The translations under genes and the position numbers were made by a program. From a virus (Duplodnaviria; Heunggongvirae; Uroviricota; Caudoviricetes): a stretch of DNA of 4,837 nucleotides. The notes below the pieces were generated by a model that saw nothing but the letters and a program-made list of their open reading frames with translations, made no database searches and was not told the origin of the DNA. Shown piece by piece: positions 1 through 4,837 of the stretch. The stretch spans positions 1-4,837 of IMG/VR virus record IMGVR_UViG_2660238126_000002; one strand, 5' to 3'. Position 1 is the first letter of the stretch. Each line of letters opens with the position of its first letter.

Positions 1-123
1 ATTTTTCCTCCATTGAATTTTATGTTTCGCATCTTAAAACAGACGAGGGAAAATAAAATGTACATGTCGCTGTTTCTGGACCCGCCTCGAGAAATTTTTA
101 TTATTTACTGTTGTGTAACAAGG

Positions 124-474
124 TTATAACGCCATCTGAGCCATTTTCTGATAATTCAATCTGTCTGCTGTATCACCGGGCAAGTGGTATTGTTTATTAC
201 GATAAAAAGCGGTGTCAGTAATCATTACGGCGGGAATATCGTGTTGCCAATAATTCAGGTGGTCAGAGAAATCAATACCGGGAATAAACCATGGGGCATT
301 CATAGAATAAACAGATAAATCCCGGGATGATAACAATGCCGTTTTTACCTGACGAACGGCGTTGATATCCTGTATTCTGCCGACCAGGCAATAAAGTCCC
401 CCCGATCGGGATAAAGCCAGGACATTGCGGGTAAGGGTAATCCTGGCTACCAGGCGCAGAGTCGTAATAGCCAA
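124..474 (-). pseudogene. M28-family zinc peptidase-like gene, C-terminal segment
   Basis: Translation contains NVLALSRSGG and then DFSDH...IPAVMITD...YHLPGDTADRLNY, matching the conserved C-terminal motifs of M28 aminopeptidases as I recall them. The expected catalytic core between the two motif groups is missing. Family assignment is by motif recall, not alignment. Confidence 0.4.
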
Positions 475-815
475 TCGGGGACGCCCTGCGCGGTAACTCT
501 GGCACCGCTACTGACAAAGAACTCTTTTATATACTCTACGGACCTATTCAGATTATCAATATTGTCGGCATTACGTGGATGCACAGTTTGTGTAAGATAA
601 CGAACTGTTTTTTCTAATTGCTCAGGACTGACGTGTCGGGGCGTTGGCGATAATGCAGTGACCCAGGGTTGGTAAAAATAATCAGAGGGAGTGAAATCAG
701 AAATAATATAACAAAAGGAGCGCGAAAATACCGTCAGCATGGTATTGCGGGCGGTCATCGTCTGCTGGTTGGTGATCCAGAAGGTTTTATAACCCGCCTG
801 TTTCATCATGTTCAT
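447..815 (-). pseudogene. Same M28-like gene, N-terminal segment in a different frame
   Basis: Translation ...RYLTQTVHPRNADNIDNLNRSVEYIKEFFVSSGARVTAQG resembles the N-terminal region of M28 peptidases. The frame is open upstream to 923 with no SD before the ATG at 815, and it overlaps the 124-474 ORF in another frame, implying a frameshift near 447-474. Confidence 0.4.
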
Positions 816-910
816 CAGCGACGGCTGCGTCAGATACAGATCCGGGTTCTTTTCATTGGCAAAGGTCAGCGNNTNTATCGCGCTGATTTGGCAATTGTGA
901 TGATAAAATA

Positions 911-929
911 AAGTGAAGTTTTTTCACTT
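911..929. promoter_or_regulatory. Perfect inverted repeat AAGTGAA-gtttt-TTCACTT, candidate operator just upstream of the HTH gene
   Basis: 7-bp arms with a 5-bp spacer read directly from the sequence, 16 bp upstream of the ATG at 945 and next to a plausible SD (aaagg at 934-938). Confidence 0.3.
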
Positions 930-944
930 TTTCAAAGGTGTTTT

Positions 945-1196
945 ATGACTGGCTGGGAACTGCGAATCTGGCGAAAAAGCATGCTCTGGTCACGCGAAAA
1001 AGCGGCCAGAGAATTTGGCGTGACGCAGAGAACATGGCACGCCTGGGAAAATGCGGAACAGGTGGACGTCACCGTCTGGAGGACCACCCAGGCACTTTCA
1101 GTCCGTGACCTGCTGCCTCACATGCAGGGGATGCGCAAGGCAGATATCATCAGGCGTCTGGAAAATGAACTGGGGGAAACGGCAGAGGATGTGTGA
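945..1196 (+). CDS. Small HTH DNA-binding protein (XRE/Cro-like), 83 aa
   Basis: ATG at 945 with SD-like aaagg 6-10 nt upstream; stop TGA at 1194-1196. The segment REKAAREFGVTQRTWHAWENA fits an HTH pattern of the XRE/Cro type. Confidence 0.6.
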   Translation: MTGWELRIWRKSMLWSREKAAREFGVTQRTWHAWENAEQVDVTVWRTTQALSVRDLLPHMQGMRKADIIRRLENELGETAEDV

Positions 1197-1207
1197 GCGT
1201 GATTCAC

Positions 1208-1228
1208 AGCCTGGCAGAATGCCAGGCT
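1208..1228. terminator. Hairpin between convergent genes (AGCCTGGCA-gaa-TGCCAGGCT)
   Basis: Perfect 9-bp stem with 3-nt loop between the HTH gene stop (1196) and the stop of the minus-strand small ORF (1227). No clear U-tract on either strand, so terminator function is inferred from position only. Confidence 0.35.
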
Positions 1229-1433
1229 ACTGCTCATCAGGAAACAGTTTTTTCAGTTCTTCACCGGAAAGTCCGGCTGCCTCCTGAATCCGTTCCGGCG
1301 TCCAGCCCATATCCCGCAGCCGGCAGGCTGCTTCCCGCGCCACTTCAAGCGCACCTTTCTTAAAACCTTCTTTAAAACCTTCGTCGAAACCTTCGTCGAA
1401 ACCTTTCTGTATAAGACGTTCTGCAATCGTCAT
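1227..1433 (-). CDS. Orphan Rpn-family C-terminal-domain-like small protein (DUF4351-type), 68 aa
   Basis: [60 protein letters not shown] matches the C-terminal tail of YhgA/Rpn-like (transposase_31) proteins: repeated (E/K)G units followed by a ...GLS.EEL segment. The N-terminal nuclease domain is absent; the frame is open only to 1511 upstream. Confidence 0.55.
1359..1406. repeat. Four tandem copies of a ~12-bp unit (aaaccttcgtcg-like) inside the small ORF
   Basis: Read directly: ttaaaaccttct / ttaaaaccttcg / tcgaaaccttcg / tcgaaacctttc, encoding the [17 protein letters not shown] repeat. Confidence 0.7.
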
Positions 1434-1456
1434 ACTGTTTTCTCTGCTCCTGCTGG

Positions 1457-1482
1457 CAAAAGGCCCGGTATTTTGCCGGGCT
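1457..1482 (-). terminator. Candidate intrinsic terminator on the minus strand
   Basis: Minus-strand read is AGCCCGG-caaaata-CCGGGCC followed by TTTTG: a GC-rich 6-bp stem plus a short U-tract. Confidence 0.4.
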
Positions 1483-1512
1483 GTGAGGTTCTCATCAGTG
1501 AATGATTTTCTT

Positions 1513-1698
1513 CAGTTCAACCTGCTCGACACCCCGGGGCACGAAGACTTCTCGGAAGATACCTATCGTACCCTGACGGCGGTGGACTGCTGCCTGATGG
1601 TTATCGACGCTGCAAAAGGTGTTGAAGATCGTACCCGTAAGCTGATGGAAGTTACCCGTCTGCGCGACACGCCGATCCTCACCTTTATGAACAAAGAC
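1513..1698 (+). pseudogene. prfC: Internal fragment of peptide chain release factor 3 gene (about 60 codons)
   Basis: Translation [59 protein letters not shown] matches the G-domain region of PrfC (about residues 78-137 by recall). Flanking residues on both sides do not match PrfC, and there is no native start or stop. Confidence 0.75.
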
Positions 1699-1882
1699 CA
1701 GCGATCGGTGAGATCGTGCCGCCCGGCGTCGATCAGGGTGATCGCGTCGTTAAACTTCACTACGCCGCTGCATGGCTGGCGGCGATACTGCGGCGAGCGC
1801 CGCGCTCTGGCGCAGGCCGCGCACTCGCAGCCCCATGCCGGAACGCCCTGTGCGCCGCCAGTGCCGGTGAGCGTGAGGGTNA

Positions 1883-2248
1883 GGCCANNTCTNCNTCTCG
1901 CATGTTCTGCATGATGATGCGACGGCGGCGGTAAGCCGGGTCCGCCAGATTCTGCGGATCTTCATCCGGCAGGCGACGCAGGGTCATCTGCGGATTCACC
2001 TCATGCTTGGGTTTGACATATCCCGGCGTAAATTCAGAGGTGGAGCCGCCACGGGAACGGATAACCTCACCGGAAACAATCGGCGAAACGTACAGCGCCA
2101 TGTTTACCAGTCCCGGAATTTGTGAGAGATAGACTTTCTCCGTGGTGAAGGGATAGCTCTCACGGAAAAAGAGACGCAGAAACAGCGGATCAAACTTAAA
2201 TTTCTGCTCATTTGCCGCCAGCAGCTGGGCGGTTGTGTACATCGACAT
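1883..2248 (-). pseudogene. E: Lambda-type major capsid protein gene, 5' fragment (first ~122 codons)
   Basis: MSMYTTAQLLAANEQKFKFDPLFLRLFFRESYPFTTEKVY...PAYRRRRIIMQNMR matches the N-terminus of lambda gpE. Similarity stops after about codon 122, at the N-containing stretch 1881-1895, and the frame continues into unrelated GC-rich sequence. Confidence 0.9.
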
Positions 2249-2268
2249 AAAAAAATCCCGTAAAAAAA

Positions 2269-2282
2269 GCCGCACAGGCGGC
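2269..2282 (-). other. Short hairpin in the D-E intergenic region, followed by a T-run on the coding strand
   Basis: Minus-strand read is GCCGC-ctgt-GCGGC then TTTTTTT (plus-strand A-run 2262-2268), ending about 14 nt before the E start codon. No SD is visible for E. Confidence 0.3.
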
Positions 2283-2303
2283 CTTTAGTGATGAAGGGTA
2301 AGG

Positions 2304-2636
2304 TTAAACGATGCTGATTGCCGTTCCGGCAAACGCGGTCCGTTTTTTCGTCTCGTCGCTGGCAGCCTCCGGCCAGAGCACATCCTCATAACGGAACGTG
2401 CCGGACTTGTAGAACGTCAGCGTGGTGCTGGTCTGGTCAGCATCAACCGCCAGAATGCCAACGGCAGTACCGTCGGTGGTGCCATCCCACGCAACCAGCT
2501 TACGGGTGGAGGTGTCCAGCATCAGCGGGGTCATTGCAGGCGCTTTCGCACTCAATCCGCCGGGCGCGGTTGCCGTATGTGCCGGGTCACTGTTGCCCAG
2601 CGGCTGGTAATGGGTAAAGGTTTCTTTGCTCGTCAT
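2304..2636 (-). CDS. D: Lambda-type head decoration protein, 110 aa, intact
   Basis: [56 protein letters not shown]...TAISIV is near-identical to lambda gpD as recalled. SD AAGGGA lies 5 nt upstream of the ATG at 2636. The 9-nt gap to the upstream stop and 55-nt gap to E match the lambda spacing I recall. Confidence 0.95.
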
Positions 2637-2645
2637 AAACATCCC

Positions 2646-3041
2646 TTACACTGGTGTGTTCAGCAAATCGTTAACGGCATCAGATGCCGGGTTACCTGCA
2701 GCCAGTGGTGCCGGTGCCCCCTGCATCAGACGATCCAGCGCAGTGTCACTGCGCGCCTGTGCACTCTGTGGTGCAGCTGCCAGAATGCGGCGGGCCGTTT
2801 CCACGGTCATACCGGGGGTTTCGGCCAGCACACGTGCCTGTTCTTCGCGTCCGTGAGCTTCCTCACAGTTGAGGATCCCCATAATGCGGCTGTTTTCTGC
2901 CGCAACCGCAGCGGTGATCTGCGCGTTCACGTCCGGCTGCGCCGCGCTGGCGTTTTCGCCCTCCGTCGCTTGCACCACGTCAGTAACGTCAGCCTGCGAA
3001 GCAGTGGCTGAAACAGTTGTTGATTGAGTCTCTTTGGTCAT
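2646..3041 (-). CDS. Nu3: Lambda-type scaffolding protein, nested in-frame in the C-like ORF, 131 aa
   Basis: Internal ATG at 3041 is preceded by a strong SD (AGGAGG, then gcgaa). Product MTKETQSTTVSATASQ...NDLLNTPV is Ala/Gln-rich and scaffold-like. It contains GGATCC at 2873-2878 and GGTTACC at 2690-2696, which I recall as lambda landmark sites. An alternative in-frame ATG exists at 3251. Confidence 0.8.
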   Translation of the reverse strand: MTKETQSTTVSATASQADVTDVVQATEGENASAAQPDVNAQITAAVAAENSRIMGILNCEEAHGREEQARVLAETPGMTVETARRILAAAPQSAQARSDTALDRLMQGAPAPLAAGNPASDAVNDLLNTPV

Positions 3042-3617
3042 TCGCCCTCCTGAGAGACGGGATTTACGTGCATCCAGTGCATCACGCATAACGGTGATCG
3101 CATCGGTGCTGTTGACAAGTTCATCAGCCAGTCCGGCATCAATGGCCTCCTGACCGCTGTACATTGCAGCCTCGGTATCCAGCACAGCCTGCACGGACAG
3201 GCCGGTATATGCCGACACCTTCTGCGCAAACATCCGGCNGGTTGCATCCATCCGGGNCTGCAGTGTCTCGCCGTCATAGGTAATCGGGTTACCGCACGCT
3301 TCCGGGTTCCAGCCCAGCAGAGCCTTAAAGAGCATCTGCCGGACATCGTCCACCACATCATACGAGGCAAACTGACCGCGCTCATCACGCCCGTTACTCA
3401 GTATGACAACCACGGAGAAGCCCTCTTTCAGCTCCTGCCAGTAGTCGGTCTGGCTTTTGTTTTCTCCCGGAGAGTCATCACCCGGTACCACATACGCCGC
3501 CGGGAGTCTCAGCTTTCCGACCTCCGGCAGATTTTTGAACTGTGCCGCGCCTGCTACCCGGTTTTCAAAATACGGGCAGCGGGCACGCAGCGCAGCAATA
3601 ACAGGCGTCAGTTTCAT
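2646..3617 (-). CDS. Chimeric ORF: non-lambda N-terminal ~110 aa joined in-frame to the C-terminal part of a lambda C-like (S49 prohead protease) gene plus Nu3
   Basis: Continuous 323-codon frame. Residues from about 110 onward (...ETLQ.RMDAT.RMFAQKVSAYTGLSVQAVLDTE...) match the lambda gpC C-terminus. Residues 1-110 (MKLTPVIAALRARCPYFENRVAGAAQ...) carry no S49 catalytic-core motif that I can recognise. The ATG at 3617 overlaps the upstream ORF stop (ATGA, 3614-3617). N bases sit at 3239 and 3257. Confidence 0.6.
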   Translation of the reverse strand: MKLTPVIAALRARCPYFENRVAGAAQFKNLPEVGKLRLPAAYVVPGDDSPGENKSQTDYWQELKEGFSVVVILSNGRDERGQFASYDVVDDVRQMLFKALLGWNPEACGNPITYDGETLQXRMDATXRMFAQKVSAYTGLSVQAVLDTEAAMYSGQEAIDAGLADELVNSTDAITVMRDALDARKSRLSGGRMTKETQSTTVSATASQADVTDVVQATEGENASAAQPDVNAQITAAVAAENSRIMGILNCEEAHGREEQARVLAETPGMTVETARRILAAAPQSAQARSDTALDRLMQGAPAPLAAGNPASDAVNDLLNTPV

Positions 3618-4018
3618 CTGTGTCGTCGCTCCGGCTTCAGTGATTTACGCAATTCCCGCGCCAGAAAATAGCGTGTCCAGCTGCGGTTCTTTTCAAGCGT
3701 TTCCACCATAAAGTTATTACGTGGAGCCAGCCGCCAGCCGCTGCCACCGGATGCACCACGATGATGACTACGACGACGTTTTGCTCCTCCCCGGACACCA
3801 AAAAACAGAAACGCCGGATAGAAGTCACCAGAGATCATCCGGTTCCCCTTCCCGTTGCGCTGGTTAGGGGCAATGCGTGTCATAAAACCGGCTCGCTTTT
3901 TACTGGCTCTCGGCACCATGTAACCAATCGAACGAGCCAGGCGTCCGGTCTGATAACCGGGGTTTTCACCCGGTGCCGACCGCGCACGGCGCATCACCAG
4001 CCGACGGGCATCACGCAT
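3614..4018 (-). CDS. Arg-rich basic ORF, 134 aa, unknown function; possibly the 3' remnant of a longer phage gene
   Basis: Only open frame on this strand here, with E. coli-like codons (cgt, ctg, ccg, ggt). Stop overlaps the downstream start (ATGA). No SD before the ATG at 4018, which sits exactly where the sequence becomes AT-rich. Frame is open upstream only to 4084 with no further ATG. Confidence 0.35.
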   Translation of the reverse strand: MRDARRLVMRRARSAPGENPGYQTGRLARSIGYMVPRASKKRAGFMTRIAPNQRNGKGNRMISGDFYPAFLFFGVRGGAKRRRSHHRGASGGSGWRLAPRNNFMVETLEKNRSWTRYFLARELRKSLKPERRHR

Positions 4019-4034
4019 ATGACGCTGACCAATC

Positions 4035-4370
4035 GTGACAAACGATAGATTTATAAAATCTTCATTACCGATCCCTGAACTATACTATCTACCACAGAGA
4101 AAATTTACTGGGATTTCTTTAAAATACAAAGGAAAAATCCCATATACACCAGCTAGTTCAAAAATGAAATGGGATATAGTACAGTCTCTTTTGCTGAAAC
4201 AAACATCCTTATTTATATCAAACAACACAATGCAAGGAAGTAGGAGGAAAAACGAGTTCATCATAAACTCAATAATATGGAAAAAAAATGAAACCTCAAA
4301 TTGCGAATATTCAATCGAAGGAGGTGTTTATGCTCTGTTTAGGTATACTGGTAAGCCTGCTGGCTATTAG
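4035..4370 (+). CDS. AT-rich ORF (111 codons from GTG), possibly the 3' remnant of an acquired gene
   Basis: Stop TAG at 4368-4370 is immediately followed by an intrinsic terminator. There is no SD at the GTG start or at internal ATGs. Lys/Asn/Ile-rich, with no recognisable domain. Confidence 0.2.
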   Translation: MTNDRFIKSSLPIPELYYLPQRKFTGISLKYKGKIPYTPASSKMKWDIVQSLLLKQTSLFISNNTMQGSRRKNEFIINSIIWKKNETSNCEYSIEGGVYALFRYTGKPAGY

Positions 4371-4497
4371 ACCCTGCTTCGGCGGGGTTTTTTTATGGGC
4401 ACGGTGCGGGGTGAGTTGTCGGATGCGCTTCGCTTATCCGACCTACAGGGGAGGATATTGTAGGCCCGGTAAACGTGGTGCCATCGGGCAAAATTAG
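4330..4497 (+). CDS. Candidate small ORF (55 aa) with a near-perfect ribosome-binding site
   Basis: AAGGAGGTG at 4318-4326, 3-nt spacer, ATG at 4330. Product begins MLCLGILVSLLAI (hydrophobic). The frame runs through the terminator hairpin and both REP units, which argues against a conventional gene. Confidence 0.2.
   Translation: MLCLGILVSLLAIRPCFGGVFLWARCGVSCRMRFAYPTYRGGYCRPGKRGAIGQN
4371..4394 (+). terminator. Rho-independent terminator, plus strand
   Basis: Stem ACCCTGC / GCGGGGT (7 bp, one G-U pair) with a TTCG loop, followed by a 7-T run (4388-4394). Confidence 0.6.
4416..4489. repeat. Two REP-like palindromic units in opposite orientation (BIME-like)
   Basis: Unit 1 around 4418-4442 is GTCGGATGCGCTTCGCTTATCCGAC, followed by CTAC. 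Unit 2 around 4460-4489 is GTAGGCCCGGTAAACGTGGTGCCATCGGGC. Both resemble the enterobacterial REP consensus (GCCGGATGCG...CTTATCCGGCCTAC) as recalled. Confidence 0.6.
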
Positions 4498-4533
4498 CTC
4501 GGAGTAACAGGTTTTGATTATTTAAGGAAGTGA

Positions 4534-4728
4534 TGGTGGTGGGGGAAGGATTACTCAACGCTGCGCGCTTCGCCCTTCGGGTCGTTGCCTGCGGCAACGC
4601 TCTCTCGCTGCAAAATGAGTCAGGGAAAACGACACAATCAGGCGCTTATCGCCCTGGCGAGACGACGCTGCGACGTTCTGTTCGCCATGATGCGCGACGG
4701 GACTTTTTATACCCCGCAGGCGTCATAA
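4534..4728 (+). mobile_element. Probable 3'-terminal remnant of an IS110-family transposase gene
   Basis: The frame ending at TAA 4726-4728 encodes ...[34 protein letters not shown]. The spacing GK-9-AR-10-RDG and the hydrophobic pattern match the conserved C-terminus of IS110/IS116/IS902 transposases as I recall it. There is no start codon or SD, and no upstream transposase body in the window. Confidence 0.4.
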
Positions 4729-4837
4729 CATGCTTGACAACTTAATAGGGGTCCCCCGCTTCAGCCCCGTAAAACGCATCTGACTCCCGCACAACACGCA
4801 CTTCAGCGGGTCAACCTTTAGTAACCTCTGATACATC

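Follow-up and report, generated by a model that had tools for sequence, protein, structure and literature searches.

Joined fragments of phnP, prfC and a lambdoid capsid gene in a draft Escherichia coli contig: most likely an assembly artefact

The DNA analysed here (the window, 4,837 bp in full) corresponds from end to end to a GenBank WGS contig, CCBV01000687.1 (assembly GCA_000936365.1), as found by look-up of its exact products. It tiles fully into about 11 pieces of E. coli DNA, 80-1387 bp each and unrelated to one another (Table 1). Their sources are the chromosome, plasmids, IS elements and two different prophages, and every fragment has 99.3-100% identity to a known E. coli locus. Neighbouring fragments overlap by 0-5 nt, and at each breakpoint the similarity to the source locus ends. 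The fragment ends fall within genes nearly everywhere, as in prfC, phnP and the capsid gene E (portions retained are given in Table 1); eptC and a plasmid HTH gene are likewise represented by interior pieces. Our main concern is the central portion of the window, in which a piece of phnP is enclosed between pieces of prfC and E.

Table 1. Features of the 4,837-bp window (coordinates are those of the window)
Feature	Coordinates	Strand	Remarks
Frameshifted pseudogene adjoining yfbM	1-719	-	
eptC	720-871		internal piece
Plasmid HTH regulator gene, 68-aa ORF and 3' end of Rpn gene	876-1518		
138-aa spurious ORF	1498-1914	+	prfC frame; crosses three junctions (plasmid/prfC/phnP antisense/E antisense); called gene
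prfC (release factor 3) internal fragment	1519-1695	+	nt 250-426 of 1587, codons 84-142
phnP 5' fragment	1696-1885	-	nt 5-194 of 759, PhnP residues 4-64
162-aa spurious ORF	1760-2248	-	E codons 1-122, then 40 phnP codons out of frame; called gene
phnP/E junction zone	1881-1895		five Ns straddling the switch; GGC (1883-1885) common to both sources
Lambdoid E, D and part of C	1883-3269		
Lambdoid major capsid gene E 5' fragment	1883-2248	-	nt 1-366 of 1026, codons 1-122 of 341
323-aa gene call	2646-3617	-	in-frame chimera, fused at 3269
Second, sheath-bearing prophage	3269-4044		tail-terminator gene and neighbour
Plasmid HTH gene interior	4045-4368		matches two plasmids, one being p600468_158
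RtT/tyrT region	4368-4610		
ISEc20	4610-4757		3' end
IS91-family fragment	4753-4837		

The capsid gene E lies on the minus strand, with its ATG at 2248-2246. Ns aside, its retained portion is identical to a prophage gene of strain S51 that is annotated as the major capsid protein, and it has 98-99% identity to lambdoid phages. The translation matches PF03864 (Phage_cap_E) over profile positions 1-108 of 329 with 70.5 bits, well above the gathering cut-off of 22.9, and the neighbouring gene matches PF02924, the family of the lambda head decoration protein D. The fragment falls far short of a complete lambda-type E coding sequence, which has about 341 codons. The preliminary description of this DNA had placed the end of the similarity to E at about 1883, inside a cluster of Ns spanning 1881-1895. 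That observation holds exactly: the similarity stops at 1883, after E nt 366, and the Ns are present in the deposited record.

The sequence beyond this point had been described as a very GC-rich block without a recognisable translation and of unknown origin. Its G+C content is indeed high, 0.70 over 1704-1882 as against 0.53 across the window; its origin and coding content are readily identified. In a megablast search of complete E. coli genomes, 1698-1882 is 100% identical to phnP, and the phnP match is present at 90-100% identity in 5,390 of the 5,426 genomes. A local blastn alignment against phnP of strain E2863 extends the match to the full 190 nt of the block, and the N at 1881 is its sole mismatch. 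When translated from the minus strand, the block is identical in 61 of 61 residues to WP_000059926.1 (BLASTP). It also matches the NCBIfam equivalog profile for PhnP, TIGR03307, over positions 2-62 of 249 (E=3.3e-25); the score of 88.9 bits is below the curated cut-off of 272 bits, and the block thus does not qualify as a full-length PhnP. The absence of a visible protein in the earlier reading is probably explained by the translation in the frame of E, which gives nonsense, as phnP lies out of frame with that gene. The high G+C content is the native composition of this part of phnP: nt 1-194 of the native gene also have a G+C content of 0.70, compared with 0.59 for the entire gene. Only a portion of the gene is present, and therefore the phnP sequence of the window is a gene fragment, not a functional copy.

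At the junction itself, the prophage gene E and phnP of the chromosomal phn operon have only the trinucleotide GGC in common. The called bases around it change allegiance sharply, with 1882 agreeing only with phnP and 1886, 1887, 1890 and 1891 agreeing only with E. The two reading frames differ: nt 1 of E is at 2248 and nt 1 of phnP maps to 1889, a distance of 359 nt that leaves a remainder of 2. The join lies inside both coding sequences, and we found no att site, no IS end or terminal repeat and no target-site duplication there. Joining at a restriction site was considered and rejected; the GGCC found at 1883-1886 forms a HaeIII site in E that has no counterpart on the phnP side. Further, no common motif or restriction site recurs across the junctions of the contig.

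On the left, the block is bounded just as abruptly. Its edge there had been put at 1704; the actual position is 1696, where phnP meets prfC in a second junction. The prfC fragment, on the plus strand, is 100% identical over 177 nt to its source gene, and RefSeq annotates prfC at the matching locus. Its translation matches NF001964/TIGR00503 over positions 84-142 and also PF00009 (GTP_EFTU). A base-by-base comparison with both source loci finds no shared bases and no Ns at 1695/1696. In the closed E2863 chromosome (NZ_AP018802.1), a distance of 339 kb separates phnP from prfC, and the two occur in the order opposite to that in the window. Thus, a simple deletion cannot produce this join. The order and orientation would fit the junction of a 339-kb duplication. 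Neither a tandem duplication nor a deletion involving phnP and prfC is nevertheless accepted here, because other unrelated joins are present just 177 and 190 nt away.

These two junctions belong to a larger set. Further abrupt joins, at least eight in number, are found at 719/720, 871-876, 1518/1519, 3269, 4044/4045, 4368, 4610 and 4753-4757. The fragments between them have some features that we record for their own sake. The first, on the minus strand, matches at 100% identity a gene located between yfbM and elaD, which RefSeq annotates as a frameshifted pseudogene in strain 120899; its translation may correspond to the C-terminus of an M28-type peptidase. In the first plasmid piece, the 68-aa ORF (1227-1433, minus strand) contains a motif partly encoded by a 15-nt tandem duplication (cttcgtcgaaacctt), with the repeat at about 1381-1410. 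This ORF is annotated as a hypothetical protein, and in the reference plasmid it directly precedes a full-length gene for an Rpn family nuclease, of which the window keeps approximately the last 24 nt (~1495-1518). The RtT/tyrT fragment takes in a portion of the RtT sRNA region that lies downstream of tyrT, where RefSeq annotates the RtT sRNA, and has a 25-nt internal repeat, such that 4528-4552 matches a second place in the reference locus. Two non-adjacent fragments, 4045-4368 and 4753-4837, match the same two plasmids, NZ_CP127033.1 (strain TW10690) and p600468_158, which carry the counterparts approximately 4.7 kb apart. Human stool isolates of the accession series CP0258xx-CP0259xx match several of the chromosomal fragments at 100% identity. 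We take these isolates to be ETEC strains, and on that basis the source strain is probably ETEC-like.

The ambiguous bases of the contig are not scattered. Those of the phnP/E junction zone are at 1881, 1888, 1889, 1893 and 1895, all of them positions at which the two sources differ. The others are at 872, 873 and 875, by the join of eptC to plasmid DNA (871-876), and at 3239 and 3257, by the join of lambdoid C to the second prophage (3269). Hence none of the ten Ns is farther than 30 nt from one of just three junctions. Because 12.6% of the window is that near to any junction, the probability of this arrangement by chance is approximately 0.002 when the Ns are treated as three independent clusters. 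Weighing against an assembly artefact, seven junctions are without any N. We also considered whether the Ns mark disagreement between sources. Nine of the ten are at positions where the two sources differ, as against the approximately 7.5 expected by chance, and we dropped this as independent evidence. At 3239, both candidate sources have G, and a conflict between left and right therefore does not explain that N; it may come from several near-identical copies of lambdoid prophages. In the phnP and lambdoid segments, local blastn gives the Ns as the sole mismatches to the best references. The consensus is thus clean except at the joins. Ns at joins within an otherwise clean consensus are expected when conflicting read ends have been merged, and are not expected of a real junction that is well covered.

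The joins have given rise to a number of gene calls. Besides the 162-aa and 138-aa ORFs of Table 1, the 323-aa call combines an N-terminal part from the tail-terminator protein of a sheath-bearing prophage with a C-terminal part from lambda C (S49 peptidase/scaffold). A 122-aa call joins eptC sequence to that of the pseudogene beside yfbM, and CCBV01000687.1 itself is the sole contig recorded with this junction-spanning product. The look-up of a 65-aa junction-spanning ORF (1563-1760, minus strand) returned no record.

None of the junctions checked is reproduced in the other records searched. Among the 5,426 complete E. coli genomes, no genome has a place that covers more than 29% of the window. 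None of the 5,424 genomes that match 1440-1720 covers at least 80% of that interval in one place, and no complete E. coli genome spans 1-900 or 4020-4837. Exact-word scans of viral, genome and metagenome contig collections for a 29-nt, N-free word across the prfC/phnP junction gave no hit. When 1519-2248 was compared with 50,697 phage and 72,556 plasmid records, no match extended beyond the E portion.

The preliminary description had called the E/phnP boundary a junction between unrelated DNAs. For the deposited sequence this is correct, E and phnP being unrelated apart from the common GGC; as a feature of the organism it most likely does not stand. A segment that maps to another locus had been named there as the sign of a chimeric join, and such is the case: in complete genomes, phnP, prfC and the prophage head genes each have a location of their own. 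Given these separate loci and about nine similar joins in the same contig, the junction is most likely absent from the organism, however genuine it is in the record. Three of the four marks by which a misjoin is defined are found together at this site: the two sides map to separate loci, the junction is not reproduced, and the base-call quality drops where the sides meet. Further, none of the three genes E, phnP and prfC is complete, and E enters phnP out of frame; for these reasons nothing functions at this stretch.

We therefore favour an explanation in terms of genome assembly. We consider it highly probable that the E/phnP join (1883-1885) and the prfC/phnP join (1695/1696) are both assembly artefacts, in a contig that is a chain of about 11 pieces. 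Its number in the assembly, 687, indicates a very fragmented draft. A plausible course of events is that a short-read assembly was broken into numerous contigs only 80-1400 bp long, which would then have been linked, by way of spurious read-pair evidence, during scaffolding, gap closing or consensus building. The gaps would have been closed to zero length, and isolated Ns could have been left where conflicting read ends were merged. Misjoins in a de Bruijn graph typically show overlaps of k-mer length. Such overlaps are absent at the joins, and thus the error would be one of scaffolding, gap closing or consensus merging, not a plain error in a de Bruijn path. The exact software step is a presumed one, suggested by how such pipelines generally work.

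Blunt joins with 0-3 nt of microhomology would also be expected from in-vitro ligation or from illegitimate recombination, and both must be weighed. In the former case, sheared genomic fragments would have been ligated to one another during library construction and the chimeras then faithfully assembled. The blunt joins with overlaps of 0-5 nt, the absence of adaptor or filler sequence, and fragment sizes of 80-1387 nt, which are like those of sheared DNA, are all in keeping with this account. It would, however, require many independent and consistently overlapping chimeric inserts to place 11 fragments in 4.8 kb, and a clonal product should give clean base calls instead of Ns concentrated at the joins; nor is a common restriction site or motif seen at the junctions. 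We regard ligation as unlikely, and note that, if right, it still makes the contig an artefact. More improbable again is a genuine scrapyard formed in vivo, in which chromosomal, plasmid and prophage fragments were serially joined by an illegitimate process (microhomology-mediated or nuclease-driven, e.g. of the Rpn type) within a chromosome, plasmid or defective prophage, with E being fused to phnP through the GGC microhomology. The 3 nt shared at E/phnP, the 0-5 nt at other joins and the pieces of mobile elements on the contig (ISEc20, IS91, the Rpn nuclease gene and two prophages) can be cited in its favour. Set against them is the absence of the checked junctions from all of the complete E. 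coli genomes and phage and plasmid records enumerated above. Moreover, the essential or core single-copy genes prfC, eptC and phnP are represented only by internal snippets of 150-190 nt, the IS fragments are internal pieces and not ends that flank joins, and the ambiguous bases cluster at the joins. This history has a very small probability in our estimation.

The adjacency of lambdoid E, D and C to host DNA could also suggest a lambdoid phage that captured the host phnP beside its head genes, in the manner of specialised transduction. Aberrant excision takes up DNA beside the attachment site, not within a capsid gene, and a capture inside E conflicts with that mechanism. A phage in which E is cut at codon 122 would be unable to form heads. 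In addition, the host piece is just 190 nt long and is followed directly by an unrelated piece of 177 nt, the join occurs in no phage record, and the prfC/phnP junction word is absent from viral contigs. This reading is effectively refuted, and we give it the least credence of those discussed here.

The biological interest of a contig that very probably arose by misassembly is near nil; its use is in database housekeeping. The gene calls of 162, 138, 323 and 122 aa from CCBV01000687.1 are on record, and their products are absent from nature. Such chimeric ORFs seed false novel families and false fusion proteins in large protein collections, and chimeric contigs can lead astray a search for horizontal transfer or for the boundaries of prophages. 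Errors of this type would be prevented if CCBV01000687.1, and probably the whole assembly, were flagged as chimeric.

Comparison with known systems places the parts, and then the whole. The parts are unremarkable representatives of familiar families (PhnP, RF3 and lambda E, D and C), each preserved as a fragment and hence none a working gene. The E. coli phnP gene encodes a phosphoribosyl cyclic phosphodiesterase of the C-P lyase operon. The block is identical to its counterpart in that gene and has the same G+C content of 70%, but it amounts to a quarter of the gene and includes neither the start codon nor the phnO context that lies upstream. The lambda head cluster (C/Nu3, D and E; PF03864 and PF02924) is matched in the order and orientation of C, D and E, and the head-gene stretch of the window is 99.6-100% identical to E. 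coli lambdoid prophages. The departures from the cluster are that E stops at codon 122 of 341 and that C is cut at 3269, where it is fused to the tail-terminator gene of another prophage. For the window in its entirety, the closest likeness is to misjoined draft contigs, a known class. Runs of Ns as gap placeholders and k-mer-length overlaps, which can accompany that class, are lacking here. In all other respects noted the resemblance is close: matches of approximately 100% to separate loci, abrupt breakpoints internal to genes, ambiguous bases at joins, junctions (those checked) unique to one record and a highly fragmented assembly.
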